From Candidatus Omnitrophota bacterium (GTDB lineage Bacteria; Omnitrophota; Gorgyraeia; 2-02-FULL-51-18): 64,000 nucleotides of DNA. The first letter of the stretch is position 1; each line of letters starts with the position of its first letter. The notes below the pieces were generated by a model. That model had not been told where the DNA came from and did not search any database. It saw only the letters and a list, made by a program, of their open reading frames with translations. The stretch is from contig CAMDWQ010000006.1 of NCBI GenBank assembly GCA_945877765.1, positions 15,046-79,045 on the forward strand, in the 5' to 3' direction. The translations under genes were made by a program, and so were the position numbers. This document shows positions 1,851-64,000 of the stretch, one piece after another.

Positions 1851-2233
1851 CAGCCTTAACTGCCTGATAAAAAAGGCACTTTTCCCATTTAATCAAAAAA
1901 GCTTATCTTAATAAACGTAACCCATTTAATTAGTATGGCTTATAAATCTTTACTTCTATGATAATTTGCTTTTATTGTCTTAAATCGGGAGGATTAGCGG
2001 CCTGTTAAAAAAAGTATGCAGGAGCTATTGACAATATGACAATATCGGGCATACTTCAAATATAGATTAAATAAGTTCCTATGTTTTAAGGTGTTGGGTG
2101 TCTCCAAAACGACAACCCAGTCCTCAGTCCTGCAGTCCTGGGACACGCACCTAATTCACGCATTGTTGGATAATCCTAAGGGGAAAATGCATTCAGACTA
2201 GACCGTACAAAAGTGGCAAATTTAAGGAGCTTT

Positions 2234-19167: not shown

Positions 19168-19171
19168 CGTC

Positions 19172-32267: not shown

Positions 32268-32312
32268 CCGCCCATTCGAACGGAAAACCGCGCCGAATGG
32301 GCGGATTTATTT
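32268..32312 (+). terminator. rho-independent terminator
   Basis: ccgcccattcgaa / ccgaatgggcgg stem followed by atttatttt. The ATG at 32297 used by the ORF track lies inside this hairpin. Confidence 0.55.
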
Positions 32313-32323
32313 TAAGGGGTTTT

Positions 32324-41327: not shown

Positions 41328-41723
41328 ATGCCAATCGAAAAACAACTCTCAATCTTCATGGAAAACAAGCCAGGTAACCTTTCTCGAATTTGTTCCACGC
41401 TCGCGGAAAACAACATCAACATCCATGCGATGTCAGTCCACGATACCGTGGATCATGCGATTGTCCGTCTTTTGGTCGATTACCCCACAAAGGCATTGTT
41501 GATCCTTGAGCAGGAGGGGGTCTACACCATTCCTCAAGAAGTGGTGGTGCTGGGCATAGACAATAAACCCGGCATCATTTCGACGGTTGCCAAAAAACTT
41601 TTTCGCGCCGATATTAATATCGAATACGCTTATTGCACCGCCACTACCAATCAAGACCACGGCTGTCTTGTCATCAAAACAAAAGATCCTGAACAAACCC
41701 TCGAGATTCTTGAGTCCTTCTAA
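41328..41723 (+). CDS. ACT-domain protein
   Basis: Two tandem ACT-like units (LSIFMENKPGNLSRICSTLAENNINI... and LGIDNKPGIISTVAKKLFRADINI). Confidence 0.6.
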   Translation: MPIEKQLSIFMENKPGNLSRICSTLAENNINIHAMSVHDTVDHAIVRLLVDYPTKALLILEQEGVYTIPQEVVVLGIDNKPGIISTVAKKLFRADINIEYAYCTATTNQDHGCLVIKTKDPEQTLEILESF

Positions 41724-42390
41724 AAATATTTTTCTTTCGCTGGTAGCGATTTTTTTTCTTTCCCAAACCTCTCTGGGGTTTACGGCAGATCGCCAGCAAG
41801 CTTTTGTTGAAGAAGTCTTAAGCGGCGATACCGTCCGGCTGAAGGGCGGGAAAACTCTAAAGTATACCGGTGTTGAAGCGCCCCCGCTGCAGCATCGAAT
41901 CCCCCTGGTCCGCACTTATGGAGAAAGTGCAAAGGCGTATAATGAACAGCTGGTCCTGCATAAAAAAATTTGGATTGACTGGGGACGGCGCCTGCGGGAT
42001 CGGCATAATAATTTATTGGGGTATGTTTACTTAGAAGACAACACATTTGTTAACCTTGAGTTATTGAGAGCTGGTCAAGCCAAACCCAATCTTTATGCGC
42101 CGGATCTTGTATTTGCTGATCTGTTTCATCAAACCGCCTGGGATGCCGAAAAAAATAGGCGAGGGCTGTGGAAAGAAGAACCTAAAAATCCCTATGCTAA
42201 AGAAGCGTACGTCGGCGAAAAGAATACAAAGATTTATTACCTCCCCAACTCCTCCGAATTGGAGCGAATCCCGCAAGCCAACCTCGTTACTTTCCGTTCC
42301 CGTGTGGAGGCTACCGCAGCAGGCTATCGCGCGTGCAATACCTGCAAAGAGACGACGCGCTACAACAGCGAGCCCGACACACTTTATTAA
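41710..42390 (+). CDS. secreted thermonuclease (SNase-like) family protein
   Basis: SNase-like pattern DTVRLKGGKTLKYTGVEAPP...LLGYVYL...NLELLRAGQA. No in-frame ATG. TTG at 41710 would give a signal peptide M-SPSKNIFLSLVAIFFLSQTSLG. Start uncertain. Confidence 0.55.
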   Translation: MSPSKNIFLSLVAIFFLSQTSLGFTADRQQAFVEEVLSGDTVRLKGGKTLKYTGVEAPPLQHRIPLVRTYGESAKAYNEQLVLHKKIWIDWGRRLRDRHNNLLGYVYLEDNTFVNLELLRAGQAKPNLYAPDLVFADLFHQTAWDAEKNRRGLWKEEPKNPYAKEAYVGEKNTKIYYLPNSSELERIPQANLVTFRSRVEATAAGYRACNTCKETTRYNSEPDTLY

Positions 42391-42829: not shown

Positions 42830-42958
42830 AACAACCTATACTCAAAAACTAAGCATCTGCGCACTACAGCCATCTTTTCAGCCTTCTTGATATAAAAGAA
42901 GGGGGAAGGGTGGTTTTTTTATGCTATACTTTGGAAAATAATCTCAATGGAGGTGTGT

Positions 42959-43351
42959 ATGACGCAAAGCGACCGAATCGTTGAAAAGCGTGAATTTTTT
43001 CGTTTGGATTTTACTGCTGGTCTTGAATTTAAAAGCTACCAACCTGAGGAAGGTTTAGAATCAAAAGCCATGGTCCAGAACGTTAGTCAGTCCGGCGTGC
43101 TCTTTAGCACCCAAAGCAGCCCTCCGGCTATTTCGAGCATTCTTTGGATGAATATGGATATCCGAACGCTTAAGATTTGTCAGGAAATTGAGAATAGAGC
43201 CCTGATATTCAATAAAGGCTTGCTTGGAAAGGTGGTTCGTGTTGAAGAAGATGCGCGCACAGGCAAATCTTATGATGTCGGTGTTTGCTTCCTAACTCGT
43301 GATCAACAAAACTCGCGCGACGTCCAGGCTATCCTAAACCGCGTTAACTAA
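42959..43351 (+). CDS. PilZ-domain protein
   Basis: ATG at 42959. RREFFRLDF then VQNVSQSGVLF (DxSxxG-like). Confidence 0.6.
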   Translation: MTQSDRIVEKREFFRLDFTAGLEFKSYQPEEGLESKAMVQNVSQSGVLFSTQSSPPAISSILWMNMDIRTLKICQEIENRALIFNKGLLGKVVRVEEDARTGKSYDVGVCFLTRDQQNSRDVQAILNRVN

Positions 43352-49339: not shown

Positions 49340-49843
49340 CTAACGAAAGTTAATAAACTGTAAATCTACATCAAAGCTTTTTTGCCTTAGGGCCGCTATC
49401 AATGCCTGCAAATCATCAATTTTTACCGCCTGGACACGAATTTGTTCTGACTGGATTTGTGGCTGCACTTTCATCTTGAGCTCTTTGATGTATTTAACAA
49501 CATCCTTGGCCTTGTCGGAAGGAATGCCGCTTTGAATTTTAATGATCTGCTTTACCGAACCGCCGACCATGCCGCTTTCAACTTTTTCATACACAAGAGA
49601 CTTGAGTGAGACGCCCCGCTTCACGCACTTGGTTTGGATAAGATCTACAAGCGTTTTGAGCCGGTACTCGCTCTCTGTCTTAAGCGTGATCGTTTTCTCA
49701 CTCTTATCTAACTCCATCGAGCTATTGGAGCCCTTAAAATCAAAGCGCTGGTCCAGCTCTTTTTTAGCCTGGATAACAGCATTGTCAACTTCCTGCATAT
49801 TCACTTCAGAAACGATATCAAATGAATGATCTTTGGATCCCAT
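49340..49843 (-). CDS. yajQ: YajQ-family (UPF0234) nucleotide / c-di-GMP-binding protein
   Basis: 167 aa. SFDIVSEV...RFDFKG...IQTKCVKRGV pattern of YajQ. Confidence 0.8.
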   Translation of the reverse strand: MGSKDHSFDIVSEVNMQEVDNAVIQAKKELDQRFDFKGSNSSMELDKSEKTITLKTESEYRLKTLVDLIQTKCVKRGVSLKSLVYEKVESGMVGGSVKQIIKIQSGIPSDKAKDVVKYIKELKMKVQPQIQSEQIRVQAVKIDDLQALIAALRQKSFDVDLQFINFR

Positions 49844-53850: not shown

Positions 53851-55737
53851 TCAAGAAATTTTAGAACTAGTTGAAATAATTTCGTAATTACTGCTTTTGT
53901 ACGCGTCAAGGTTAGTCACCAAAATGAAAATTTTCTCAATATCCTCTGCCGCCAAGCCCTCTTGGGCGGCTAGGGACTCAAGATCAACGCCGCTAGTCGT
54001 CCCATCGGCGCGCTCATCCCAATCATGGGTTATCATCGAACCTCCCCGTGTCCGCAATAGCAACTGAATCATCAATCCAACGCCCGGTCCTTCTGCCTTA
54101 ATTTTTAAAACGGGCAAGTTTTTTTCCTTTGGCGCAACAGCAATTTCATAATAATCCGTTGCCCAGGCGGATACATCGCAGGCATTGGTATTGTCGCCAC
54201 CAACCGGAAGCTCCTCTAGATGCGCCTTAAATCCGGCCCACTCCCCAACCCAATCAGTGCCGCAAGCAGGCCCAAGTTTTTTTTGGTCGCCGTAGCCGTC
54301 CAAAAGATAGAACGATTTTTCCTTAAAGAGCAGTTTTGTTCTAGCAACTTCTCTTAGGTAGACCGCGTCTTCCTTTAATCCAAAATCATTCAATAAGCAA
54401 GCCTTGGAAAATTTTTTCAAAAGAGATCTGCTGGGTGTGTTGGTTGCGGATTCGAGGGACTGCTTAAAGTTTAATGGGTCTGCCTGGCGAAGAGCCCGGC
54501 TCAGGGTTTCGATGGTTTTCATGCCAAATTGATAATCAATAAATCTCCAAAAAAGGGCATTTTCATAACGCAGCTCGGTAAAGGGCTGATCCGGGTAGCG
54601 CATAAAATAGTTGGAACCCCCGCGCGAGAAACGGATTTTATTCGGAAGTGTTTCTCTGAATCCCTGCGAATAAAAGTCGTGGCGTGCACCGGCAAAAGTT
54701 TCAAAGTAGCGTGCCAAACCCTCCACGTACCAATCCAAGCTTTTCTTGGATGTGGTGCGCTCTATAGCCTCTGGCGATATATCGTTGGATTCGCGATTCA
54801 AGTTCTTGTTGTAATAAAACAGTACGACATGGAGCATTTCGTGAATCAAAGTTCCTCGCAGGTCAACGTTGATGTTACGAGGGCCTAAAGAGGAGGGATT
54901 CATTTGTTCCCAGTTTTTTATATATTCTCGATAATTAACGGGCAGAAGAATGAGAGCGCCATAAGCGCGCGCCGAAAATTTAACCGTATCAAAACAAGGT
55001 GCGTCACGGTAGGCAGCACTGGTAAAACCATGAAACTTAAATCCGTTGTCCGCATTTGAATTGCCCAGGTAGATGTCGATTGTTTTATCAGGGTCGTAGA
55101 CATAAGTTTTGTCGGGGTCTGAAAATGAATAGCCTGAGGTGCCAAATCCCTCAAGACGGGTGATCGTCTGATAGGCTGTGACCGCGGCCTCTAGCACCTG
55201 CTGGGGGAATGAGACTGCAACTCCCACCTCCTCAAGAATCTGGTCTGTGTAATGAACTTTTACCGCCGCGCCGTCCTCCAAACGACCCTCGCATACTTTT
55301 TCGAGCGTCTGCACTTGCTCTTCCGGAGCGTTGGGTGTTGGCGCCGACAACACTTTTTCGTTTCCAAGGAAAGTCAGCCGGCCCGTGTAATTATTCAACG
55401 CGGGAATAACTGAAATGGACCCCGAAAGATCATCTTTGACCATCAGATTCCAAGCGCGCTGTCCCTGGGTATCACGTATAAAATGCTTGGCGTTTTTTTT
55501 ATCTTCTACGTATATCTGCACACGAATCAGCTGACCTGCTTGCCAGTGGTAGGACAGCACCTGTTCGCGGCTGACCTTGACAGTGATCGGTGATGTTGAA
55601 GAAGAAAAATTCTGATTAAGATCGATGTAGTTGGGTAGGCTCAATGCCGGCGCATCCGCTGCGCCGCTTGACATTGCAGGCAGCATAAGAGCTGTCGCAA
55701 AGAAAAATACAATAAGGTTATGTTTTGGTTTTATCAT
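53851..55737 (-). CDS. large secreted protein with HExxH zincin-like motif, function unknown
   Basis: 628 aa, signal peptide. Single HEMLH motif in GTLIHEMLHVV. No other recognisable domain. Confidence 0.5.
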   Translation of the reverse strand: MIKPKHNLIVFFFATALMLPAMSSGAADAPALSLPNYIDLNQNFSSSTSPITVKVSREQVLSYHWQAGQLIRVQIYVEDKKNAKHFIRDTQGQRAWNLMVKDDLSGSISVIPALNNYTGRLTFLGNEKVLSAPTPNAPEEQVQTLEKVCEGRLEDGAAVKVHYTDQILEEVGVAVSFPQQVLEAAVTAYQTITRLEGFGTSGYSFSDPDKTYVYDPDKTIDIYLGNSNADNGFKFHGFTSAAYRDAPCFDTVKFSARAYGALILLPVNYREYIKNWEQMNPSSLGPRNINVDLRGTLIHEMLHVVLFYYNKNLNRESNDISPEAIERTTSKKSLDWYVEGLARYFETFAGARHDFYSQGFRETLPNKIRFSRGGSNYFMRYPDQPFTELRYENALFWRFIDYQFGMKTIETLSRALRQADPLNFKQSLESATNTPSRSLLKKFSKACLLNDFGLKEDAVYLREVARTKLLFKEKSFYLLDGYGDQKKLGPACGTDWVGEWAGFKAHLEELPVGGDNTNACDVSAWATDYYEIAVAPKEKNLPVLKIKAEGPGVGLMIQLLLRTRGGSMITHDWDERADGTTSGVDLESLAAQEGLAAEDIEKIFILVTNLDAYKSSNYEIISTSSKIS

Positions 55738-55930: not shown

Positions 55931-56488
55931 CTAGGTTTTTCTAATGAGGATCTGTGGGTCCAGAAGCCCTGTGCTCGGATTTAAGGCTCCGTAAAGAGTG
56001 ATGATTTCAAAATGGACGTGGGGTTGAATGCCTGCGGCTGAGGCATTCCCTGTTTTTCCACAAGTCCCAATGATGTCGCCACGAGCCACCCAGTCCCCCT
56101 GGCGCCCATAGAGCCTAGAAAGATGTGCGTAGCGCGTGCGCAGTCCATCAAAGTGTCCAATTTCAGCGTACAAACCATATCCTTTTTCCTGGCCAGCAAA
56201 TACAATCCTGCCTGACTTCGAAGCCAAAACCGGCTCTCCCAATCGCGCCAAGACATCAATCCCCTTGTGCCTGCGCTTGCCATTGCGAGAAGCTCCGAAA
56301 TAACCCTTTCCATAGGGGTCGTTTCTTAGACGAATGCTTTGGGATTCTGGCTTTATAGGACTTGAAAAATATGTCTCTTGTTTGTGAAGCTTATCATCGG
56401 CGCTACGCCAAACTAAGATTAGAGAGGAAAATAGAGCGCAGCCCGCAAGGAAGAACAGCGTGGGTGCACAGGCGGAAAATTTCCGCAC
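55931..56488 (-). CDS. M23-family metallopeptidase
   Basis: HxxxD / HxH-type pattern: KGIDVLARLGEPVLAS...GYGLYAEIGH...GTCGKTGNASAAGIQPHVHFEI. Confidence 0.75.
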   Translation of the reverse strand: MRKFSACAPTLFFLAGCALFSSLILVWRSADDKLHKQETYFSSPIKPESQSIRLRNDPYGKGYFGASRNGKRRHKGIDVLARLGEPVLASKSGRIVFAGQEKGYGLYAEIGHFDGLRTRYAHLSRLYGRQGDWVARGDIIGTCGKTGNASAAGIQPHVHFEIITLYGALNPSTGLLDPQILIRKT

Positions 56489-56633
56489 AAACTAAAACCC
56501 GAAACGCGCCCGGACCAACGCAACCATCACGATACCAATCATGATGCCAACGAACGTGTAGCGGTTTAGATTAAAATCAAAGGGGGCTTGAAACATGCGT
56601 TCATTGTAACAATCCAACCGTAAAACGCAATAC

Positions 56634-56680
56634 AAAAAACCCCACCCATACAAACCCTACGATTTGTATGGGTGGGGGTT
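56634..56680 (-). terminator. rho-independent terminator (minus strand)
   Basis: ccccacccatacaaa / tttgtatgggtgggg 15-bp stem. The plus-strand A-run 56634-56640 gives a T-run on the minus strand. Confidence 0.55.
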
Positions 56681-56696
56681 TATCCTCGGTCCTGAA

Positions 56697-56837
56697 TTAT
56701 TTCAGGCTAAACAGTTTGGTGCCGAATACGACAGCCAAAATGACGATGACGCCGAGGTGGGGTGCGAGCGGTGTCGTAAACACCAGACCCACAACAATAC
56801 CAATCAACATCCCCGCAAGAATATCGGATTTAATCAT
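56697..56837 (-). CDS. small membrane protein (46 aa)
   Basis: ATG at 56837 is 8 nt after AAGGGGG. Two hydrophobic segments. Terminator immediately downstream. Confidence 0.35.
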   Translation of the reverse strand: MIKSDILAGMLIGIVVGLVFTTPLAPHLGVIVILAVVFGTKLFSLK

Positions 56838-56999
56838 CTGAATCACCCCCTTCAAGGAGCAAAGCTTTGATGACTCTGTTTCGATAGGCATCCCTCCTTT
56901 TTGTCATGAACCACTATAGAAAGTATAGTGTTGCGCCTAGGAAATACAATGGCAAGATGAGATTTGCTTAAGAGTTTATAGGGTTTAAGTAACTTTTGC

Positions 57000-57887
57000 T
57001 TAGATGTGCTTAATCAACCAGCCGGAAATTTTCTCGAAAACAGCCTGCCTCTGAACCTCATTCAAGAGTTCGTGGTACCAACCATCATAAAAATGAAGCT
57101 CCTTATCAGCGCTGGAAAGCCTTTGGTAAAAAAGCTGAGTTTTTGGCTTAGAAACAATGCGATCGTCCCCCGCCTGAAGAATAAGCATGGGGGTTTGAAT
57201 CTGCGGGGCTGTCTTGAAAGCCTCAGTAATTCCTTGCAAAAATTCGGTGTATAAACGGGCTGATATTTTAGAATGAATCAGAGGATCCTGCTCGCGCAAC
57301 AACCGCATATCGGGGTCGTGTGTCAGAAACTCTGTCTTCACACCGCTATTTTGTGTGAGCGTCGGCAGCAGGAGCGAGGCCGTTTTGGCGAGTAGAGACT
57401 GCCAGATGGGGATCGGCAAAGCAACGCCAAGGAGAGGTGAAGATAAAATAAGACCCTTGAGATGAACAGGCCGGCACTGCTTTAAAAAAAGCACCGTTAG
57501 GAGACCGCCAAAACTGTGGCCCATTAAAAAAATAGGGACTCCCGCATGAGCTCTTTCTGCTAGCCCATACAAAACCTTAAAATCTGCTTTATACTCCCAC
57601 AGACCGTCGGTGTATCCCCGCTTGCCCCCACTCTCTCCAAACCCACGCAAGTCGGGAATCCAGCATTCAATGCCCAGGGAAGAAAAAAAACAAGCCGACG
57701 GAAGATAGCGGCCTCCATGCTCCCCCAATCCATGAATCAAAAATAAAATGGCTTTTGGCTGCCCCTGAGAAGCAACCTTTCGATAAAAAATAACGTTTTT
57801 ATCATACGCAATAAAACGATGCTCAGAAAAAGTCTCGCCGCTGGAGGCTGCTTGGTCCATTTCAGGATCGACCGGACGACGCATCAA
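57000..57887 (-). CDS. alpha/beta hydrolase (lysophospholipase / monoacylglycerol lipase-like)
   Basis: HGLGEHGGRY oxyanion region and GHSFGG nucleophile elbow. Confidence 0.8.
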   Translation of the reverse strand: MMRRPVDPEMDQAASSGETFSEHRFIAYDKNVIFYRKVASQGQPKAILFLIHGLGEHGGRYLPSACFFSSLGIECWIPDLRGFGESGGKRGYTDGLWEYKADFKVLYGLAERAHAGVPIFLMGHSFGGLLTVLFLKQCRPVHLKGLILSSPLLGVALPIPIWQSLLAKTASLLLPTLTQNSGVKTEFLTHDPDMRLLREQDPLIHSKISARLYTEFLQGITEAFKTAPQIQTPMLILQAGDDRIVSKPKTQLFYQRLSSADKELHFYDGWYHELLNEVQRQAVFEKISGWLIKHI

Positions 57888-59680
57888 TCTCTTGAATAGG
57901 TACCAGAATAGAAAGGCAGAAGACGATCTTTATAACGAGAATAGACTACCTCACGACGTACTTTAAGCGTCGGCGTAAGCTCGCCCGATTCTTGACTAAA
58001 GTCGTTCGGTTCTAGGGCGAAGTATTTAATTTTTTCATAAGATGAAAAATCCGTCATGGCAGCCTGAACTCGAGAGTCCATGAATTCATAAATTTTCTGG
58101 TCCTTAAGAAGCTCTTCGTAGGTGGTATAAGCCATTTTTTGAGTCTTGGCGTAATCGAGCAATTCCTGCTTGTTGGGTACAAGAATGGCGGTGATAAACT
58201 TCATCCCCTCTCCAAAAAGAACACAGCGCAGAATATAAAGATCTTTTGACAGAGCTTCTTCGATGGGCTGGGGTGATACTTTTTTGCCGCCCGAGGTTAC
58301 GATGAGGTCTTTTTTTCTGCCGGTGATCGATAGAAAACCATCGCGGTCAATTTTGCCCAGGTCGCCGGTATAAAACCAGCCGTTTTTCAAAACCGCTTCT
58401 GTTTCCTCGGGCTTTTGATAATAACCTTTCATGACGCATTCACTTTTGGTCAAAATCTCCCCGTCTTCGGCAATCTTAACCTCCACTCCCTCTAAAGGGA
58501 CGCCAACGGTTCCAAAGCGCCACTGATTCTCCCGGTTGACGCTGATCACCGGCGAAGTCTCCGTCAACCCGTATCCCTCATAAATCATCACTCCTAGATC
58601 ATGAAAAAATTCGGCAATCTCTTTGGCTATCGCCGCTCCACCCGAGACACAAAAACGTAGACGCCCGCCCAAGCGCCGACGAAAAGTTTTGTAAACTAGC
58701 TTCTCCGCTAAACGTTCTTCCCAGACTGAAAATAGATTCTTTTTCCGGCTTCCCATTCGCTTGGCTTCGCCAATTTCTTTTGCCCAGAAAAAAAGAGCTT
58801 TTCGGACGGGGCTTGCTTTTTTAACAGCTTCCAAGACTCGGTGTTGAATTTTTTCATAAAAACGCGGCACGCCCAAAAGAAACGTCGGATTCACTTCTAA
58901 AATATTTTTTGAGACAGAGTCAAGATCTTCGGCGTAAGCAATCGTCGCCCCCAGATAGACCATCAGATAATAACCGGCCGTTCGTTCAAACACGTGGCAA
59001 AGAGGCAAAAAAGAAAGGTGCAAATCGTTCTCAGTCATACGCAACGTATCGCGGCAGGCAACTACATTGGCAATAAAATTACGGTGCGTCAACAAAACTC
59101 CTTTGGGCGAGCCTGTGGTGCCCGAGGTATAAATAATACTGGCAATAGCATCCCCAGTCACGGCTTGGGCCAACGCGTCAAGCGCTGTATTCAATTTTGT
59201 TTTGACCAGGTCCCGCCACAAAAAAAGAGGTGTCAAGCTGTCTGGCTTAGAGGCCAAGAGAGAAGAATCAAACGCAATAACGCCTTTGAGATTCGGCAGA
59301 TCTTTCTGGATGGGGAGGATTTTTTCAAATTGCGTCTTATTGGATAACACCAGAAGCGCCGCGCCCGAGTCCGATAAAATATAGGCGGCTTCGGCGGACG
59401 TTAGTGACGGGTAAATAGGAACCGTGGCGATGCCTACCAGTTGCGCGGCCAAATCTGCCATCGCCCATTCGGGCCTATTTTCTGAATAAATAGCAATGCG
59501 ATCCCCTGTCTTAATTCCCATAGACAAATAAGCCGAGGCCATGGCGCGGATATCTTTAGCGGCCTCTTCCCAGACGATCGGTTCAAACTGACCGTCAACT
59601 TTACTCAAGAAAGCGGCTTTTTTGGGCAGTCTTTGGGCTGAATCTAAAAACAAACGGCCAAGATTAAGTGGTTTTTGCAT
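57884..59680 (-). CDS. long-chain fatty acid--CoA ligase (AMP-binding)
   Basis: YTSGTTGSPKGV AMP-binding motif, 598 aa. Confidence 0.85.
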   Translation of the reverse strand: MQKPLNLGRLFLDSAQRLPKKAAFLSKVDGQFEPIVWEEAAKDIRAMASAYLSMGIKTGDRIAIYSENRPEWAMADLAAQLVGIATVPIYPSLTSAEAAYILSDSGAALLVLSNKTQFEKILPIQKDLPNLKGVIAFDSSLLASKPDSLTPLFLWRDLVKTKLNTALDALAQAVTGDAIASIIYTSGTTGSPKGVLLTHRNFIANVVACRDTLRMTENDLHLSFLPLCHVFERTAGYYLMVYLGATIAYAEDLDSVSKNILEVNPTFLLGVPRFYEKIQHRVLEAVKKASPVRKALFFWAKEIGEAKRMGSRKKNLFSVWEERLAEKLVYKTFRRRLGGRLRFCVSGGAAIAKEIAEFFHDLGVMIYEGYGLTETSPVISVNRENQWRFGTVGVPLEGVEVKIAEDGEILTKSECVMKGYYQKPEETEAVLKNGWFYTGDLGKIDRDGFLSITGRKKDLIVTSGGKKVSPQPIEEALSKDLYILRCVLFGEGMKFITAILVPNKQELLDYAKTQKMAYTTYEELLKDQKIYEFMDSRVQAAMTDFSSYEKIKYFALEPNDFSQESGELTPTLKVRREVVYSRYKDRLLPFYSGTYSRD

Positions 59681-59694
59681 CGACCCCTCCTTTT

Positions 59695-61782
59695 CTAGGC
59701 ATTCTGTTGGGCGACCAACGCCTTGATTTTGGGAAGAAGCTTCATCGTCTCTTCTTCCCCCCTTTTGATAAACGGAGCCGGCTTGTAAAATTCAATCCAG
59801 CTGGCACTGGCAAGAATCGGCCGAATTAAAACATCAGCCTCTTCCCCTTTAATTTCTGCAATCTCAGATTCCATGTACTGTATCGTATTCATTAGAATAT
59901 CAACCACATTGGGAACAAACAAACGGTGCAAGCGTTTTTTGATGCGATAGATAAGGCGAATAAAAAAGTTTTTACGACGAACGGCTTGCTCTTGTCTTTG
60001 AGCTAAGTCCTCCAAATAAAGGCGCTGTTCCAGCGTGTCTTTAATCGTGGGGAATACATTCACCGCAATGACCTTGTGCACACCCGCGTCATGCAGAGCT
60101 TTAATGGGTAGTGGATTTAGGATGCCGCCGTCAACAATCGTATCCCCACCAATAAAGACCGGTTTAAAAACAGCGGGGATGGCAATTGAAGCGCGGACGG
60201 CCTCCTCGATCATCCCCGAATCAAAAATAATGGAGTCTCGAGTCGAAAGGTTCGTGCCTGTAATTTTTAAGGGGATGCGACAACTCTCAAATGTTTTATT
60301 TTCCAAATGCCGGCTTAAATGCCTCATGATTCCGCGGCCATTCAAAAAACCACGCACAGGATAAAGGCTGATATCCAGCAATCGAGTCAGCAGTAACCGC
60401 GGGGTAATCCCCATAGCAATTTTTTCAATTTCGGAGGCATCCTGGCTAACCGCGTAAACCGATCCAATCAGAGCGCCGACGCTCGAACCCGCAATGACAT
60501 CAATGGGTATTTTTTCTCTTTCAAGCACTTTGAGCACGCCGATATGAGCCAATCCAAACGCCGCTCCACTGCCAAGCACAAGACCCACCAGATTGTTACT
60601 GACAAAACGAGCGATATGACGAACCACTCGCGAATACTCAGCCTCTGGCGAATACACTACCACCGGCTCTTTGGGCGGATCCTCATCGCTAAAGAATGGC
60701 GGAGCCGCGAGAGAGAAGCATCTCTTTTTTGAAAAAAGTTCTTGGCGGACGAGATTGGTTGTACGGACGCCAAAAAAAATTTCTCTCATCACAACCGCCG
60801 TGCAACCTTCGGAAGCAGGAATTAATTTTTCGACATCCGCCATCGCTTCCTGCGTCTGCCGGATATTGTTCATGTGGCTGTCTGTTACAAAAAAAATGAA
60901 GTCCGATTGAGTAAGCGTTTTCAAAACCAAAGAGTTCATTTCGCTTGGCAGGTCAATCAGGATAAACCGATACTCAATTGCTAGATGATTGAGGATAGCG
61001 ATCATCGCTTTTTCGGACTGGCCCTCTACTTCCTCCACCGAAAGACTTAAAACATCAAACTCCGCTTCATGCCGGATGCGGTGAGGCGCAATTGAATCTG
61101 ATTCGGAATGCCCAAAATTATCAAATCCTGTCAGCGGTGCCTTCTTGATGGTCTCAAAACCGGGCATACTATCCGACTCGTCAGATCCCAAATCAATCAA
61201 AATTGTTTTCTGATGAGTTTCGTGAAAAAGGCTGGCTGCTAGATTGACAGAAAAGTGAGCGCGCTCATTTTTGGGCTGGTGGCTATAAACAGAAAAAACA
61301 TCACTTCGAAAAAGAGTTTTAGCGCGCGAATTGTCGCCGCGTAGACGATGGCTTAAGCGACGGCTAAGTTCTAGGGAAATCGTGGCGTTATGTTCGATCG
61401 TGCGCTCGAAATCGTCTTTTTTGAGCTCTAGAACCAAGGAGTCCGAAAGAGCTCTAAGAGTCGCCGAATGCGGCTGGCGCGTTAAAAGCGACATCTCCCC
61501 AAAGTGATCTCCCCGCCGCAAATAAGCCAGAATTTTCTTTTTTTCCAGCGAAGCCACAAAAGCCTCAAACCGTCCGGATACGACCACATAGAAGCTATCC
61601 GCCGGGTTTCCCTCACGGTAGACGGTTTCATCCCGCTTAAACTCTACCAAACGCATCAGCTGGCTGATGGATTTTAACTCCCACTGGCTTAAACCAGCAA
61701 ATAGAGGGCACTGCCCCAAGATTGAAACTTTATCAATTTTTTGAAACGGTGAGTGGGACTCCTGAGCGTGGGTTGAGTCCAT
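59695..61782 (-). CDS. cyclic-nucleotide-binding domain + patatin-like phospholipase (NTE-like architecture)
   Basis: N-terminal CAP_ED (FYVVVSGRFEAF...GDHFGEMSLL). C-terminal patatin GSGAAFG...GSSVGAL (GxSxG) and DGG motif in IVDGGILNP. Roughly 220-aa middle region unassigned. Confidence 0.8.
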   Translation of the reverse strand: MDSTHAQESHSPFQKIDKVSILGQCPLFAGLSQWELKSISQLMRLVEFKRDETVYREGNPADSFYVVVSGRFEAFVASLEKKKILAYLRRGDHFGEMSLLTRQPHSATLRALSDSLVLELKKDDFERTIEHNATISLELSRRLSHRLRGDNSRAKTLFRSDVFSVYSHQPKNERAHFSVNLAASLFHETHQKTILIDLGSDESDSMPGFETIKKAPLTGFDNFGHSESDSIAPHRIRHEAEFDVLSLSVEEVEGQSEKAMIAILNHLAIEYRFILIDLPSEMNSLVLKTLTQSDFIFFVTDSHMNNIRQTQEAMADVEKLIPASEGCTAVVMREIFFGVRTTNLVRQELFSKKRCFSLAAPPFFSDEDPPKEPVVVYSPEAEYSRVVRHIARFVSNNLVGLVLGSGAAFGLAHIGVLKVLEREKIPIDVIAGSSVGALIGSVYAVSQDASEIEKIAMGITPRLLLTRLLDISLYPVRGFLNGRGIMRHLSRHLENKTFESCRIPLKITGTNLSTRDSIIFDSGMIEEAVRASIAIPAVFKPVFIGGDTIVDGGILNPLPIKALHDAGVHKVIAVNVFPTIKDTLEQRLYLEDLAQRQEQAVRRKNFFIRLIYRIKKRLHRLFVPNVVDILMNTIQYMESEIAEIKGEEADVLIRPILASASWIEFYKPAPFIKRGEEETMKLLPKIKALVAQQNA

Positions 61783-61788
61783 GCAGAC

Positions 61789-62151
61789 TTACGAGTTTTT
61801 GAGGTAACGCCCGATAAACTGTTCCAAACGCTTTTGATCGGCTGGTTTGGTGTTGGAAAAATAAATAGCCACAAGATACCGCCCGGTACGCAAATCTTTG
61901 TCTTTGCGCACCAAAACACCCTTCATATGTACCGATTGACGCTTCCCCGAGCTGCCAGCCGGTAATTCAAGCCCAATGGCCAACTGACTCATCATAGGGA
62001 TATCCTTGTCGACGACACACATCGCGCCACTGCAGGAAATATTGATGGTAATGGCTTGGATATCGTAACCCCGGTGCCCGATCTTAAAAAGAAGAGGCTC
62101 TGATATGCGTACTGAGCGGCGTCTTTCTGCGACCCGCTTGGGGAGACTCAT
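61789..62151 (-). CDS. PilZ-domain protein
   Basis: ERRRSVRISEP then NISCSGAM, 120 aa. 6 nt upstream of the patatin gene. Confidence 0.65.
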   Translation of the reverse strand: MSLPKRVAERRRSVRISEPLLFKIGHRGYDIQAITINISCSGAMCVVDKDIPMMSQLAIGLELPAGSSGKRQSVHMKGVLVRKDKDLRTGRYLVAIYFSNTKPADQKRLEQFIGRYLKNS

Positions 62152-62155
62152 GAGG

Positions 62156-62416
62156 TCATCCTGCTGCTTTTTCAGTCGAGGCGGATGAAGCGACGGTGGC
62201 GGCAGCTGCCGCTTCCTTGGCTTTTAGTGCTTTTTCCGCGTTGGTCGCGACAAACAACCGATGAGCCTGTTTGTTAGCAAAATATTTTCCGTCCCGGTAG
62301 TACCAGTCTTTACGGCGAATTCTTTTATTACTTTGTGCACAGTTGGTGGGCTTAACCTTCTTAATCTTACCCTTTGCTTCAACCGCTGCTTCCTGCTTCT
62401 TAACTTCGTCTGCCAT
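62156..62416 (-). CDS. small basic hypothetical protein
   Basis: Start MADEVKK. Lys/Ala-rich, no motif recognised. Confidence 0.3.
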   Translation of the reverse strand: MADEVKKQEAAVEAKGKIKKVKPTNCAQSNKRIRRKDWYYRDGKYFANKQAHRLFVATNAEKALKAKEAAAAATVASSASTEKAAG

Positions 62417-62584
62417 TGCGCTACACTCCATTTCTAAACATTTAAGGGGTTAACCTCCTCACCCGGACCCCAAATCGAACACGCCAGGGAAACCGAAAGG
62501 AGGTTTTTCACACCATATTAAACACTTGCCCCCCAAAATCAAGACTAATCTTTGCTCTCACAGAAACCACCGACCGCCCAAAAA

Positions 62585-62935
62585 TTAGCCGATAGCCACC
62601 GAGTAGACATAATCTAAAATTTTATTTAAATCGGAAGGGTCTACATTTTGAAAACGGACACCCGCTTCACGCGCAGGATTATGCTTATCTTTAGTAGCAG
62701 AAGCCCAAACGACATCCCCCACCACACAAACCGCATCCTCCAGATAAGGGACTTGAATCTGAATGCGAATCAACTCGCCTACACGGACCGGCTCCTTGAC
62801 AATCAGGCTCAATCCACCAATGCTAATGTTTTTTATGCACGAGCTAAAAGCTCTTTGCTTTTTATGCTTCTTGATTAGACTGTATTCAACTGGCAGCGGA
62901 GCCCGCAACCGTATAAATTTTCGATTTTCAATCAT
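62585..62935 (-). CDS. PilZ-domain protein
   Basis: NRKFIRLRAP then NISIGGLSL. Confidence 0.65.
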   Translation of the reverse strand: MIENRKFIRLRAPLPVEYSLIKKHKKQRAFSSCIKNISIGGLSLIVKEPVRVGELIRIQIQVPYLEDAVCVVGDVVWASATKDKHNPAREAGVRFQNVDPSDLNKILDYVYSVAIG

Positions 62936-63359
62936 GCGTATGTTTTTTTTCGGCAGCTGTTTTTTTGGTAGTTTTGAGCCACTCGCGGTAGACGTACTCC
63001 AGCACCCGCATACGATCCGCCTGGTTGATCTTGGTCAAGCGCACACCAGTGTCAAAGCCATCCGCCCAGGCCACCTTACCCGTTGCAAATACTGGCAGGT
63101 TATCGCCAGGGACATTCATTTGGATTTCAAGCGCGGTTCCCACTGGAACTTGGTCCTTCATACCAATCCTTAGCCCTTCCTTGCTCAAGTCCTTCGCCAG
63201 AGCCTTGCCAAAAAGAGGGTTTAATGTCAGGGTTTTATACTGGATATCAACTGGCGTGTTAAAGCGCAGATACTTTCGCCGCTCGTTCATCTGCTCCTGA
63301 TGAGTTGGTTTTTTATTTATCTCTGAGTGGGGCCCGGCCTCTGCAGGATGTTTGGTCAT
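62928..63359 (-). CDS. PilZ-domain protein
   Basis: ERRKYLRFNTP then DLSKEGLRI. Alternative ATG at 63290 after AGGAG would remove a 23-aa N-terminal extension. Confidence 0.6.
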   Translation of the reverse strand: MTKHPAEAGPHSEINKKPTHQEQMNERRKYLRFNTPVDIQYKTLTLNPLFGKALAKDLSKEGLRIGMKDQVPVGTALEIQMNVPGDNLPVFATGKVAWADGFDTGVRLTKINQADRMRVLEYVYREWLKTTKKTAAEKKHTHD

Positions 63360-63367
63360 CGTCAGCT

Positions 63368-63559
63368 CTAATCGTTTTTAAAATAGTGAATCAGGTCGCT
63401 CTTTAAAAAACGGTAGTTGTCGCCCACTTTGCGCCCCGGTATTTTCTTTGCCTTTACCAGTTTGTATAGAGTTTGACGGCTAATGCTTAAAAAATCACAA
63501 GCATCCTCAGTTGTAAGAGCCTTGTCACTACCCCTATCCAACAAAACATTTTTACTCAT
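63368..63559 (-). CDS. helix-turn-helix (excisionase/MerR-like) DNA-binding protein
   Basis: LTTEDACDFLSISRQTLYKLVKAKKIPGRKVG, 63 aa from MSKNV. Confidence 0.55.
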   Translation of the reverse strand: MSKNVLLDRGSDKALTTEDACDFLSISRQTLYKLVKAKKIPGRKVGDNYRFLKSDLIHYFKND

Positions 63560-63720
63560 TTTTTTGTCCCCTAATTCTTTCTGTATCAACGAAGATCCAT
63601 TAGAGCAAAACCCGAAATCATTGTCAATAGATTATTATATTAGTTAATTAAGGTTAATCTTAGTAAACAAAAATGGTTTAATTGTGCGGGAGTCAAAAAG
63701 AAGCTAGAATGCAGCCGCTC

Positions 63721-63760
63721 AAAAAAAACCCCACGGGCGAATTGATGCCCGCAGGATTAT
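63721..63760 (-). terminator. putative rho-independent terminator (minus strand)
   Basis: cgggc / gcccg GC stem. The plus-strand 8-A run 63721-63728 gives a T-run on the minus strand. Lies directly after the stop of the partial paralog-3 gene. Confidence 0.35.
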
Positions 63761-63774
63761 TAAAACTGCTTTAT

Positions 63775-64000
63775 TTAGAACACATATTCAGGTTGGAGGA
63801 TGGGCTGGTAATCTTGTGGCAGGGGAAACGGAAAAGTCACGATTTCATAAAGACCTCCCCCCGTACGAACGATGGACATTCCCACGCCCCTTGCCAAACC
63901 TAGCGTGAGTCCGGAGAAGGCATTATCCTCTACGCTGGTATTATAAATATTCTTCGGCAGTTCAACCCAGCCAGTAAGGGTGTTGGCAACTCCGCGGCCC
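63775..64000 (-). CDS. small secreted protein, TIGR04073-like family (paralog 3), 5'-truncated by the window edge
   Basis: Hand translation of the minus strand: ...GVANTLTGWVELPKNIYNTSVEDNAFSGLTLGLARGVGMSIVRTGGGLYEIVTFPFPLPQDYQPILQPEYVF*. Shares the TLGW and G-rich blocks plus the aromatic tail with paralogs 1 and 2. Confidence 0.45.
   Translation of the reverse strand, partial: GRGVANTLTGWVELPKNIYNTSVEDNAFSGLTLGLARGVGMSIVRTGGGLYEIVTFPFPLPQDYQPILQPEYVF

Follow-up and report, generated by a model that had tools for sequence, protein, structure and literature searches.

What is the purpose of a gene block that joins PilZ genes to a lipase with a cyclic-nucleotide-binding-type sensor, an acyl-CoA synthetase and an alpha/beta hydrolase? 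The block lies in a 64-kb stretch of DNA from a Candidatus Omnitrophota bacterium (the window, i.e. the whole stretch that was analysed), and the original prediction saw in it a membrane-lipid remodelling system governed by second messengers. We analysed the genes and compared their context in 80 Omnitrophota loci from 80 different genomes, contrasting the close clade with distant clades (49 distant loci). The gene block as read from the sequence is confirmed; its earlier interpretation as a whole is partly supported. With a probability of about 60%, we regard the locus as a streamlined glycerolipid-breakdown cluster that is conserved across Candidatus Omnitrophota, is located on the core chromosome and adjoins second-messenger receptor genes.

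Gene order and predicted transcription units

On the minus strand the block comprises, in this order, genes for an HTH protein, two PilZ proteins (PilZ-C and PilZ-B), a small basic protein (sb), a third PilZ protein (PilZ-A), the 695-aa cNMP/patatin protein, an acyl-CoA synthetase and an alpha/beta hydrolase. All ORFs of the original gene set were recovered in place on this strand, and their domains score above the Pfam cut-offs. The 8-nt overlap of PilZ-B and PilZ-C and the 6-nt gap between PilZ-A and the gene for the 695-aa protein could be reproduced from the coordinates, as could the overlap of the synthetase and hydrolase genes (4 nt with a TTG start, 1 nt with an ATG start). The patatin and synthetase genes, for which a stop/start overlap had been claimed, are actually separated by 14 nt. 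Between PilZ-B and sb there is a gap of 153 nt; from sb through the hydrolase gene, the intergenic distances span from a 4-nt overlap to the 14-nt gap. The three enzyme genes are real and tightly packed, and their co-transcription is plausible. Since the order recurs in 28 of the 28 close-clade loci with enough upstream sequence, the arrangement is not due to chance.

The leading gene (63368..63589, minus strand), which heads the block in 24 loci, codes for a small DNA-binding protein of the excisionase/MerR-like HTH_17 type (Pfam HTH_17, E=2.1e-15; TIGR01764 above cut-off). Its start is likely the ATG at 63559, giving 63 aa, and independent gene calls on the source contigs agree. The three PilZ proteins, all stand-alone and coded on the minus strand, are PilZ-C (62928..63359, 143 aa; Pfam PilZ E=2.8e-10), PilZ-B (62585..62935, 116 aa; E=5.5e-14) and PilZ-A (61789..62151, 120 aa; E=1.6e-9), the last being located 4 nt 3' of sb. 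In each of them the c-di-GMP-binding motifs RxxxR and (D/N)xSxxG are intact and lie 26-31 residues apart. They read R28KYLR and D57LSKEG in PilZ-C (both kept in 25 of 26 orthologues), R11RSVR and N37ISCSG in PilZ-A (both kept in 27 of 29), and R5KFIR and N36ISIGG in PilZ-B, where 9 of 15 orthologues have the strict form and the remaining ones an S-to-G exchange in the second motif. Some close relatives lack the PilZ-B gene. The sb gene (62156..62431, minus strand), with orthologues in 39 loci, encodes a small basic conserved protein, probably of 86 aa from the second ATG (62416), as the gene callers have it. Distant orthologues show a CxxC...CxxxC pattern, with FCS-type zinc-finger matches below threshold; in the clade of the window, three of the four cysteines are lost.

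Two conserved promoter-like elements are predicted to divide the block into an HTH-PilZ-PilZ unit and an sb-PilZ-patatin-synthetase-hydrolase unit. The first element, P1 (63599..63658, minus strand), was read from the sequence. It consists of an ATTAAC direct repeat (63658-63653 and 63648-63643), a -35 hexamer TTGACA (63627-63622), a 17-nt spacer and a -10 hexamer TCTAAT (63604-63599), and most close-clade loci show the layout ATTAAC-N4-ATTAAC ... TTGACA-N17-TnTAAT 5' of their HTH gene. The second element, P2 (-35 TTGATT at 62542-62537, 16-nt spacer, -10 TAATAT at 62520-62515), is contained in a 45-nt relic (62508..62552, minus strand) of a gene of the Minf_1886 family (TIGR04138), which codes for K-I-S-L-D-F-G-G-Q-V-F-N-M-V-stop. 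In other loci where the Minf_1886-family gene is deleted, the P2-bearing segment alone remains. In 12 loci with the intact gene this segment is nearly invariant, synonymous sites included, the fraction of identical codons being 0.76 within it versus 0.43 elsewhere in the gene, and Minf_1886-family orthologues that do not adjoin sb lack it. From their sequences we infer that P1 and P2 act as promoters. A strong intrinsic terminator (56640..56677, minus strand; 17-bp stem with 9 GC pairs, then TTTTTTGT) closes the unit, and no terminator or promoter-like site was found between PilZ-A and the patatin start. On the other side, the intrinsic terminator of the upstream 108-aa gene (63727..63758, minus strand; 12-bp stem with 7 GC pairs, then a T-run) forms the upstream boundary of the block.

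The lipase had been described as physically coupled to three PilZ proteins. This applies to PilZ-A, which is part of the predicted lipase unit, but not to PilZ-B and PilZ-C, which lie behind a separate conserved promoter-like element. Adjacency of PilZ and patatin is specific to the close clade: PilZ-A is found immediately 5' of patatin in all 28 close loci, but in only 2 of 47 distant ones. It is conceivable that the PilZ and HTH genes have no functional relation to their neighbours, i.e. that a streamlined genome has merely inherited their order and c-di-GMP plays no role in lipase control. The conserved promoter predicted for HTH-PilZC-PilZB would fit such a scenario, as would the density of PilZ genes (5 ORFs in the window, roughly one per 10 kb across the loci) and the situation in distant clades, where SAM hydroxide adenosyltransferase, macro, receiver or GDPD genes intervene between sb-(HIT)-PilZ-A and patatin; in other loci this module is located 3' of patatin, or none is present within 10 kb. 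Since the conserved block of the relatives also holds clearly unrelated genes (HIT, SAM hydroxide adenosyltransferase, macro, Minf_1886, M23 peptidase and HExxH protein), part of the linkage is plain inherited gene order. However, the uninterrupted distance of 6 nt from PilZ-A to the patatin start, the persistence of this juxtaposition in all close loci down to 43% patatin identity (L028), and the retention of sb-PilZ-A within about 2.5 kb 5' of patatin in some 13 distant loci despite rearrangements make a complete lack of functional connection possible rather than probable.

The sensor-lipase protein and its partner enzymes

According to its Pfam domains and further searches, the 695-aa protein (59695..61782, minus strand) combines a cyclic-nucleotide-type sensor, a disabled MinD/ParA-type ATPase domain and a lipase, an architecture that is new although the chemistry is ordinary. 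The full-length model is compact (pLDDT 82, pTM 0.81). Since no signal peptide or membrane segment is recognisable by eye, the protein is probably cytoplasmic. The sensor domain (residues 46-132; 61387..61647, minus strand) matches Pfam cNMP_binding with 88 bits. In its phosphate-binding cassette (PBC), F94-G-E-M-S-L-L-T-R-Q-P-H105-S-A-T, H105 takes the place that the canonical PBC Arg has in the aligned PKG and PKA. This residue is invariant in 21 sequences, and His occurs in 98 of 98 scorable homologues, Arg in none. The view that the enzymes stand under a cyclic-nucleotide sensor is thereby weakened, and because of the Arg-to-His replacement, control by cAMP or cGMP is not to be assumed.

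The middle region of about 220 aa, formerly left unassigned, could be identified as a MinD/ParA-fold domain (residues ~160-395; 60598..61305, minus strand) by profile searches, by Pfam searches on family members and by structure modelling. Its profile matches ParA 8ray (E=1.6e-12) and 3ea0 (E=2.7e-11) in the PDB, AAA_31 is matched in 12 of 15 family members, and the AF2 model (pLDDT 81, pTM 0.85) appears similar to MinD, 3ea0, FlhG, FleN and BcsQ in Foldseek (TM 0.72-0.76). The P-loop is degenerate, with H168-Q-P-K-N-E-R174-A175 in place of G-x-x-x-x-G-K-[ST], and the Walker A lysine is lost; across the family, most members have Arg at this position and about 8 of 117 have Lys. A Walker-B-like FILID and the post-P-loop helix (NLAAS) are retained. 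Judging from these motifs, the domain is not expected to hydrolyse ATP, and that of the window protein probably does not bind it either.

Residues 399-691 (59710..60588, minus strand) form an RssA/PlpD-type patatin lipase domain with a C-terminal helical extension, in which Pfam Patatin is matched at residues 401-563 (111 bits). In the alignment, the catalytic dyad of the nucleophile S434 (60481-60483, minus strand) and D551 (60130-60132, minus strand) is intact, and the G-x-G-x-x-G loop, G432-x-S434-x-G436 and D551-G-G are invariant among 21 homologues. The NCBIfam RssA model is covered in full (E=8e-42) with 143 bits, which is below its equivalog cut-off of 272 bits, and the nearest solved fold is PlpD (5fya; target TM 0.84, identity 28-29%).

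A sensor-bearing phospholipase might also be an anti-phage abortive-infection effector like CBASS CapV/CapE or Pycsar, where a cyclic nucleotide made upon infection triggers membrane destruction. In PADLOC, the sensor matches Pycsar TIR effectors at the domain level (E=2.4e-16) and the patatin domain likewise matches phospholipase effectors (E=6e-6); CapV and CapE are among the weaker Foldseek matches of the patatin domain. Nevertheless, the nearest patatin fold is of the PlpD/RssA type rather than CapV, the NCBIfam model for CBASS lipases gives 16.7 bits where its cut-off demands 200, and a cyclase (CD-NTase or PycC) was not found beside the gene, in the window or in the relatives. The gene has a fixed place in a conserved core block near metabolic genes in 80 loci from 80 genomes, quite the reverse of a defence island; the locus belongs to the core chromosome and is no island. 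A defence function is therefore highly improbable.

The gene 3' of the lipase (57884..59680, minus strand) encodes a long-chain-type acyl-CoA synthetase of 598 aa (Pfam AMP-binding, E=5.9e-79, and AMP-binding_C_3). It is FadD11-like along its full length (E=3.4e-96), with a score below the model cut-off. The last enzyme (57000..57887, minus strand; 294-295 aa) is an alpha/beta hydrolase of the monoacylglycerol-lipase/lysophospholipase type (Pfam Hydrolase_4, E=9.8e-67, 225 bits) with the motifs HG-x-GEH-x-GRY and G-H-S125-F-G. It had been called lysophospholipase-like. The alpha/beta hydrolase assignment is correct, but its nearest solved relatives are not lysophospholipase L2; every one of the top PDB matches is a monoacylglycerol lipase (M. 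tuberculosis 6eic, 1.9e-35; human MGLL, ~1e-32). A small hydrophobic ORF of 64 aa (56697..56891, minus strand), for which two membrane helices were predicted by eye, starts 108 nt 3' of the hydrolase gene. Its orthologues sit between the hydrolase and M23 peptidase genes in 23 loci, and a family search gave no match. The length of this ORF differs among gene callers.

Gene neighbourhood in relatives and proposed function

In the Omnitrophota relatives, the patatin gene is usually followed by genes for thiolase, 3-hydroxyacyl-CoA dehydrogenase and enoyl-CoA hydratase, identities that Pfam confirms, and then by the synthetase and hydrolase genes. Some loci contain acyl-CoA dehydrogenase, ETF alpha/beta and an ETF-QO-like protein between enoyl-CoA hydratase and synthetase. 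A beta-oxidation gene is located immediately 3' of patatin in 15 of 24 close and 35 of 42 distant loci, and where the flank is sufficient, the synthetase is found 3' of patatin in 15 of 15 close and 23 of 26 distant loci. The gene immediately 5' of patatin codes for GDPD in 16 of the 49 distant loci, for GlpK in 9 and for GlpD in 1. In the 64-kb window there are no beta-oxidation, GDPD, GlpK or GlpD genes. Since a beta-oxidation set and a glycerophosphodiesterase flank patatin in the relatives, the theme of the family is glycerolipid catabolism and not the deacylation/reacylation cycle that had been proposed: patatin on one side and synthetase and hydrolase on the other bracket the beta-oxidation genes, and GDPD or glycerol kinase is located 5' in many distant loci. 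It is important to note that the catabolic reading applies to the window locus by descent, not by content.

According to a neighbour-joining tree without support values, the locus has lost its beta-oxidation trio on at least six independent occasions, i.e. in the window lineage and at least five others, and patatin, synthetase and hydrolase were kept every time. Of the genome, 64 kb and about 8 kb of flanking DNA were visible, and statements on loss apply to the locus. Because of this repeated pattern, a salvage or re-use role is possible in the window lineage. The losses in the close clade suggest a role independent of beta-oxidation and speak for the reading as a second-messenger-controlled module for membrane-lipid remodelling or salvage, in which patatin and hydrolase would deacylate membrane phospholipids, the synthetase would re-activate the fatty acids for re-incorporation, and cNMP and c-di-GMP, the latter via the PilZ proteins, would jointly time the activity at a lifestyle switch. 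The lack of beta-oxidation genes in the window, the c-di-GMP-binding motifs retained in all three PilZ proteins and the position of PilZ-A directly 5' of patatin, apparently in a shared transcription unit, are in line with this reading. However, neither an acyltransferase nor any other enzyme for reacylation turned up in the cluster, among 40 scanned ORFs of the window or in the conserved neighbourhoods, and the catabolic context is the ancestral and majority state. Moreover, PilZ genes are common in these genomes and rarely adjoin patatin outside the close clade, PilZ-B and PilZ-C have a predicted promoter of their own, and the cNMP cassette is non-canonical. We consider remodelling unlikely.

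For the favoured breakdown cluster, the working unit would extend from sb and PilZ-A through the 695-aa lipase and the synthetase to the monoacylglycerol-lipase-type hydrolase, and perhaps to the small membrane ORF, transcribed from P2 and ended by the strong terminator. Binding of a small ligand by the sensor domain would be relayed via the rigid MinD-like module, a presumed pseudo-ATPase serving as scaffold, dimerisation or partner-docking surface, and would switch on the patatin domain. This domain would strip acyl chains from glycerolipids, the hydrolase would take the last acyl chain off lyso- or monoacyl intermediates, and the synthetase would convert the free fatty acids into acyl-CoA. 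In this scheme, we infer the ligand and the substrate, the direction in which regulation works and any contribution of PilZ-A or c-di-GMP. The enzymes coded between lipase and synthetase would, in most relatives, then oxidise the acyl-CoA, and the backbone would be handled by the glycerophosphodiesterase and glycerol kinase coded just upstream. Since the beta-oxidation, glycerophosphodiesterase and glycerol kinase genes are gone from the locus in the window lineage, acyl-CoA would there be oxidised by enzymes coded elsewhere or re-used in lipid synthesis.

Comparison with known systems

As had been pointed out originally, the architecture recalls the NTE family (PNPLA6/NTE, PNPLA7, Drosophila SWS and yeast Nte1), which shares with the 695-aa protein N-terminal cyclic-nucleotide-binding-type domain(s) and a C-terminal patatin (lyso)phospholipase of the RssA/YchK-related subtype. 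Homologues of the 695-aa protein are labelled 'NTE family protein' by JGI, and the NTE pathway from phosphatidylcholine via glycerophosphocholine to glycerophosphodiesterase is mirrored by GDPD 5' of patatin in the 16 distant loci. Whereas NTE has three sensor domains, the 695-aa protein has one; it also lacks an evident N-terminal membrane anchor, carries a MinD/ParA-fold domain between sensor and lipase, has His in place of the PBC Arg, and is encoded in a bacterial operon with genes for fatty-acid activation and, ancestrally, beta-oxidation. A bacterial counterpart in domain content is Rv2565 of M. tuberculosis, which comprises a cNMP-binding domain and an NTE-like esterase domain; to our knowledge, neither a MinD/ParA-fold insert nor a beta-oxidation operon context has been reported for it. 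One report (PMC10865251) lists Rv2565 among those esterases of M. tuberculosis that play a part in phosphatidylcholine metabolism, and cites it alongside literature on mycobacterial cAMP signalling. For NTE, the cNMP-binding role itself is supported only indirectly (PMC9025805).

With RssA/YchK, whose model aligns end to end with the C-terminal 300 residues, and with the patatin domain of Pseudomonas aeruginosa PlpD, which gives the best superposition for this part, the protein shares the Ser-Asp dyad and oxyanion loop. RssA, however, consists of a single domain and PlpD is secreted as a type V autotransporter, whereas the 695-aa protein has two N-terminal regulatory domains. The modelled middle domain has the fold of FleN, BcsQ and FlhG (TM 0.65-0.76), and according to PDB entry titles and two papers (PMC7439463, PMC3424551), a tie of the MinD/ParA family to c-di-GMP pathways is established for FleN/FleQ and BcsQ/BcsE. 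Those proteins are free-standing ATPases, whereas here the MinD-like part is a domain within an enzyme and lacks the deviant Walker A signature lysine; its P-loop reads E-R-A instead of G-K-T in the window protein. With CBASS CapV/CapE and Pycsar effectors the protein has the concept in common that a nucleotide messenger activates a patatin phospholipase or that a CNB domain gates an effector; it differs in having no cyclase partner, in its fixed core metabolic context and in scoring far below the cut-offs of defence models, and CapV, unlike the 695-aa protein, has no CNB domain.

Finally, the co-directional array of the relatives resembles bacterial fad clusters with their FadD-like synthetase, thiolase, 3-hydroxyacyl-CoA dehydrogenase, enoyl-CoA hydratase, acyl-CoA dehydrogenase and ETF, of which the window locus retains the synthetase as the only fad-type gene. 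Unlike in fad clusters, lipid hydrolysis is built into the array, since a sensor-gated lipase stands at its head and a monoacylglycerol-lipase-type hydrolase closes it.

Gene block and its catabolic family context

On the minus strand between 56.6 and 63.8 kb the gene list of the original prediction is confirmed, and the domains it named all score above the Pfam cut-offs: an HTH_17 gene (HTH, 63368-63589), three stand-alone PilZ genes (PilZ-C, 62928-63359; PilZ-B, 62585-62935; PilZ-A, 61789-62151), a 695-aa protein with cNMP_binding and Patatin domains (59695-61782, encoded by what we call the patatin gene), an AMP-binding acyl-CoA synthetase (57884-59680) and a Hydrolase_4 alpha/beta hydrolase (57000-57887). 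A small basic ORF, sb (62156-62431), sits between PilZ-B and PilZ-A. Independent gene calls on the source contigs put the HTH protein at 63 aa, sb at 86 aa and the hydrolase at 294 aa. As for the junctions, the 8-nt overlap of PilZ-C and PilZ-B and the 6-nt gap between PilZ-A and the patatin gene are correct as predicted, and the gap from PilZ-B to sb, put at 150 nt, measures 153 nt; the presumed stop/start overlap of the patatin and synthetase genes is actually a 14-nt gap. A strong terminator lies ahead of the block (63758-63727, minus strand), and a second one closes it after a small hydrophobic ORF (56677-56640, minus strand).

The remaining window genes encode haem biosynthesis, respiratory cytochromes, UvrD, glutathione synthesis, malate dehydrogenase, succinyl-CoA synthetase and similar functions; the region is core chromosome. 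A multihaem cytochrome c of 951 aa with a FixO-like part (28563-31418, plus strand), a COX15/CtaA-UbiA/CtaB fusion protein (32297-34057, plus strand) and the haem-synthesis operon together indicate a respiratory lifestyle. Another plus-strand gene (41587-42390) joins a staphylococcal-nuclease-like domain and an Ada-type zinc-binding domain in one protein.

The comparative sample comprised 80 Omnitrophota loci with flanks of up to 10 kb, onto whose ORFs the window proteins and further families were mapped; a patatin identity of 53% or more defined the close clade, as opposed to the distant clades. The close-clade order, all on one strand, is HTH, PilZ-C, (PilZ-B), (Minf_1886), sb, (HIT), PilZ-A, patatin, (trio), synthetase, hydrolase, followed by a small membrane ORF, an M23 peptidase and a HExxH protein. 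The last two are conserved 3' of the cluster throughout this clade, and in the window they correspond to an M23 peptidase gene (55931-56488, minus strand) adjoining that of a 628-aa HExxH-motif protein (53851-55737, minus strand), which has no Pfam match and a weak MXAN_6640-like metalloprotease match.

The trio consists of a thiolase, a 3-hydroxyacyl-CoA dehydrogenase and an enoyl-CoA hydratase, as identified by Pfam and NCBIfam. A beta-oxidation gene lies directly 3' of the patatin gene in 15 of 24 close-clade and 35 of 42 distant loci, whereas the synthetase takes this position in 9/24 and 0/42, respectively; within 10 kb downstream, the synthetase is found in 15/15 close-clade and 23/26 distant loci. 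The interval between hydratase and synthetase in distant loci holds an acyl-CoA dehydrogenase (including VLCAD/ACAD9-type enzymes), ETF alpha and beta, and an ETF-QO-like oxidoreductase. Furthermore, a glycerophosphodiesterase (GDPD) gene is located directly upstream of the patatin gene in 16 loci, and glycerol kinase (9 loci) or glycerol-3-phosphate dehydrogenase (1 locus) is adjacent. The hydrolase groups with the monoacylglycerol lipase family; an assignment as lysophospholipase L2 had to be discarded, as the NCBIfam match is weak and partial (52.6 bits versus a cut-off of 362) and the solved relatives are all monoacylglycerol lipases. Taken together, the trio, the acyl-CoA dehydrogenase/ETF genes, the GDPD and glycerol genes and the monoacylglycerol-lipase-type hydrolase argue for a complete glycerolipid catabolic pathway as the conserved family context.

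No beta-oxidation, ETF, GDPD or glycerol genes occur in the window's 64 kb, and the arrangement of trio plus acyl-CoA dehydrogenase beside the synthetase, present in most relatives, is absent there. The window locus is a derived, incomplete remnant of a beta-oxidation cluster. In a neighbour-joining tree of the patatin proteins, calculated without support values, the loci without the trio form six or more separate groups, each amid trio-bearing relatives, which suggests repeated loss of the oxidation genes, with patatin, synthetase and hydrolase retained in every case. Each time the trio has been excised between patatin and synthetase, with the flanking genes juxtaposed (close-clade loci L001-L033 and L062). 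The original prediction had proposed membrane lipid remodelling by deacylation and reacylation. As the conserved logic of the family this does not hold, and no reacylation enzyme turned up in the cluster, in the 40 window ORFs scanned or in the conserved neighbourhoods. That beta-oxidation was lost several times over and the three enzymes were kept nevertheless makes a salvage or re-use role possible in the window lineage.

Three domains of the 695-aa protein

A homology search with the 695-aa protein returned 579 sequences at E <= 1e-5, the named ones nearly all from Candidatus Omnitrophota MAGs, and the architecture of about 690 aa persists down to 36% identity. Database names are 'patatin-like phospholipase family protein', 'cyclic nucleotide-binding domain-containing protein' and 'NTE family protein'; the literature searched contained no account of this family or of Omnitrophota patatin enzymes.

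The patatin domain (PF01734, residues 401-563) scores 110.9 bits against a cut-off of 27.7. The catalytic Ser/Asp dyad, on which the original prediction hinged, is intact in an alignment of 21 homologues, where the oxyanion loop G404-S-G-A-A-F-G410, the elbow G432-S-S434-V-G436 and the catalytic D551-G-G are invariant or nearly so. Among 117 homologues, GxSxG is present in 114 and DG[GA] in 115. The domain is therefore predicted to be catalytically intact. Its best structural superposition is with the patatin domain of PlpD, and an end-to-end alignment with the RssA model extends over the C-terminal 300 residues (E=8e-42). The model of the whole protein is compact and confident (pLDDT 82, pTM 0.81), pointing to a fixed arrangement of its three domains.

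A profile search of the middle region, left unassigned in the original prediction, revealed a MinD/ParA-fold domain. The profile of residues 152-398 matches ParA, Soj, VpsO and MinD structures (best E = 1.6e-12, ParA), and 12 of 15 family members give a Pfam AAA_31 match. The AlphaFold model of this domain (pLDDT 81, pTM 0.85) superimposes in Foldseek on MinD, the ParA-family structure 3ea0, FlhG, FleN and BcsQ with TM scores of 0.72-0.76. In place of the P-loop G-x-x-x-x-G-K-[ST], the window protein has H-Q-P-K-N-E-R-A; across the family the P-loop mostly reads G-R-[TS], with G-K-[ST] kept in about 8 of 117 sequences. The K-G-G signature of the deviant Walker A motif, K-G-G-x-x-G-K-[ST], is lacking in the middle domain. 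The Walker B strand F-I-L-I-D-L-P is present, its Asp being found in most, not all, of 21 sequences. In view of the degenerate P-loop, the domain is best seen as a putative pseudo-ATPase module. A separate, bona fide ParA-type ATPase (AAA_31, E=1.3e-52) is encoded at 19088-20254 on the plus strand and carries a C-terminal AMPK1_CBM glycogen-binding module, an unusual combination.

The N-terminal sensor domain (cNMP_binding, PF00027; 88.1 bits versus a cut-off of 27.5) finds its best PDB matches in PKG and PKA regulatory domains, with which its phosphate-binding cassette (PBC), F-G-E-M-S-L-L-T-R-Q-P-H-S-A-T, can be aligned position by position. The Gly-Glu and Ser-Ala-Thr elements within it are retained; His105, however, occupies the position of the PBC Arg (R209 of PKA RI-alpha, the contact to the cyclic phosphate). 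All 98 scorable homologues have His at this position, and none has Arg. The PBC Arg is the key phosphate contact in CNB domains; PDZ-GEF has Met or His there, with consequences that are not known, and in CooA the structurally analogous His serves haem (PMC2246266). Trypanosomatid PKA regulatory subunits without this Arg bind nucleosides instead of cAMP (PMC10959531). By this replacement the sensor is non-canonical, and in view of these precedents its ligand may be cAMP, cGMP or another molecule.

A cNMP-type sensor joined to a patatin lipase also raises the question of a defence effector of the CBASS/Pycsar kind. PADLOC gave matches at the domain level only, and the NCBIfam CBASS lipase model scores 16.7 bits against a cut-off of 200, far below threshold. 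No nucleotide cyclase occurs among the neighbours of the patatin gene, nor were cyclases or GGDEF/EAL proteins found among the 40 window ORFs scanned. Lacking a partner cyclase and set in a fixed core metabolic context across the 80 loci, the lipase was rejected as a defence effector.

Predicted transcription units and the PilZ genes

Two predicted promoters divide the block. P1 (63599-63658, minus strand) reads TTGACA-N17-TCTAAT upstream of HTH and follows an ATTAAC-N4-ATTAAC direct repeat whose two copies lie one helical turn apart. This layout, with TTGACA-N17-TnTAAT, recurs at the same position in the alignment of most close-clade loci. The direct repeat is a possible operator, which the HTH_17 protein itself might recognise. 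P2 (TTGATT-N16-TAATAT) is located within 62508-62552 (minus strand), inside the 153-nt gap between PilZ-B and sb. A consensus promoter scan returned 8 sites versus 10.3 in shuffled sequences and missed both predicted promoters because of its strict -10 rule; they were recognised through comparative alignment.

The 45-nt segment containing P2 is what remains of a deleted Minf_1886-family gene (TIGR04138), which relatives carry at this position, and encodes KISLDFGGQVFNMV-stop. Where the intact gene stands beside sb, the segment is near-invariant even at synonymous sites, with an identical-codon fraction of 0.76 versus 0.43 elsewhere in the gene. Several lineages have lost the gene and kept only this segment; besides the window, it is found upstream of sb in loci L014, L006, L010, L017, L009, L022 and L002. 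In Minf_1886 orthologues away from sb, on the other hand, the P2 motif is absent. The combination of synonymous-site constraint, survival as a relic and absence away from sb is characteristic of a cis-element, in the simplest case a sigma-70-type promoter predicted to serve sb, PilZ-A, patatin, synthetase and hydrolase. A promoter-like element inside a coding sequence that persists as a relic after gene deletion would be a clear case of DNA-level selection overriding protein-level selection. An RNA element in the gap was also considered; an Rfam search of 56000-64000 at permissive thresholds yielded chance matches to a terminator hairpin only, and the gap folds no better than shuffled sequences (z = -0.8).

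By this evidence, only PilZ-A among the PilZ genes would belong to the lipase transcription unit. The claim that three PilZ genes feed into the lipase operon is therefore to be narrowed to PilZ-A, behind P2, with PilZ-B and PilZ-C in a separate unit under P1. No terminator was found between PilZ-B and P2, so that read-through is possible.

All three PilZ proteins score above the PF07238 cut-off of 22.5 bits (38.4, 52.8 and 40.9 bits) and, as was to be checked, have both RxxxR and (D/N)xSxxG intact and in canonical spacing: RRSVR and NISCSG in PilZ-A, RKFIR and NISIGG in PilZ-B, RKYLR and DLSKEG in PilZ-C. Both motifs are kept in 27 of 29 PilZ-A, 25 of 26 PilZ-C and, strictly, 9 of 15 PilZ-B orthologues; in the latter the Ser of the second motif is often Gly. 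By profile and motifs, the window proteins are predicted c-di-GMP receptors.

Association of PilZ with the patatin gene depends on the clade. A PilZ gene lies directly upstream in 28/28 close loci but in only 2/47 distant ones. In about 13 distant loci an sb-(HIT)-PilZ-A module is located 0.5-2.5 kb upstream of the patatin gene, with SAM hydroxide adenosyltransferase, macro, receiver or GDPD genes in between; in other loci, PilZ and HIT genes are found downstream of the cluster. PilZ genes are frequent in this family of loci. The window has five, including two further stand-alone proteins (42947-43351 and 13843-14256, plus strand), which marks its genome as rich in PilZ receptors; across the loci there is about 1 per 10 kb, a density at which a statistical test of PilZ proximity in the distant clades has little power. 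Any action of c-di-GMP on the lipase via PilZ-A is inferred only from their adjacency.

Orthologues of sb, found in 39 loci, show a CxxC...CxxxC pattern in the distant clades, with sub-threshold FCS-type zinc-finger matches. In the window clade 3 of the 4 Cys are lost, and the WYYR-x-G-K-YF core and lysine-rich tails are kept. Placement of sb in a zinc-ribbon family was not adopted, as the matches (zf-FLZ/FCS, LIM, PP0621) are sub-threshold and confined to distant orthologues, the window protein giving none.

Two other genes touch on c-di-GMP. About 7 kb downstream of the cluster, 49340-49843 (minus strand) encodes a DUF520/YajQ-family protein; members of this family have been reported to bind nucleotides and c-di-GMP. 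In L081, some 5-7 kb past the window's right edge and upstream of the HTH-PilZ genes, a GAF + HD_5/HD protein (1373-2875, plus strand) with an HD + HD_assoc protein as neighbour is a candidate HD-GYP-type c-di-GMP phosphodiesterase.

Overall reading and known systems

The best-supported reading of the locus is a putative sensor-gated operon for glycerolipid deacylation and fatty-acid activation with catabolic ancestry, from which the window lineage has shed the oxidation genes, the Minf_1886 gene and HIT. A more far-reaching proposal, to which we assign a chance of roughly one in eight, is that the 695-aa enzyme integrates two messengers. Its non-canonical CNB domain would respond to a nucleotide or nucleoside distinct from cAMP and cGMP, a co-transcribed PilZ-A would dock on the disabled MinD/ParA-fold domain in a c-di-GMP-dependent manner, and both inputs would gate deacylation, the module having been re-purposed to scavenging or recycling of acyl chains where beta-oxidation was discarded. 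The docking idea, part of this unlikely joint reading, is modelled on free-standing MinD-family proteins that partner c-di-GMP effectors. If true, acyl-chain scavenging or recycling would be a plausible trait for very small cells dependent on other organisms.

The genomic context is unusually explicit about the use of the products, with glycerophosphodiesterase, glycerol kinase, beta-oxidation, acyl-CoA synthetase and a monoacylglycerol-lipase-type enzyme. Moreover, the many lineages that lost the oxidation genes yet retained lipase, synthetase and hydrolase amount to a natural experiment, which bears on lipid acquisition and recycling by the uncultured, small-celled Omnitrophota. Current understanding is not overturned; what the family offers is a testable model system and improved annotation.

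Sensor-gated patatin lipases are known chiefly from eukaryotes (NTE/PNPLA6-7) and from phage-defence effectors, and in both the sensor control is poorly understood. NTE/PNPLA6-7 have an N-terminal membrane anchor and three tandem cNMP domains straight before the patatin domain, whereas the 695-aa protein has one cNMP_binding domain, a MinD/ParA-fold domain between sensor and patatin, and, by inspection of the sequence, no visible hydrophobic N-terminal segment. Its catalytic part, which aligns with the RssA model over the full length, may be of the RssA/YchK-related subtype found in NTE; its 143 bits stay below the RssA equivalog cut-off of 272 bits. With a confident three-domain model and a built-in putative pseudo-ATPase module, the 695-aa family would represent a compact, soluble-looking bacterial version of these enzymes.
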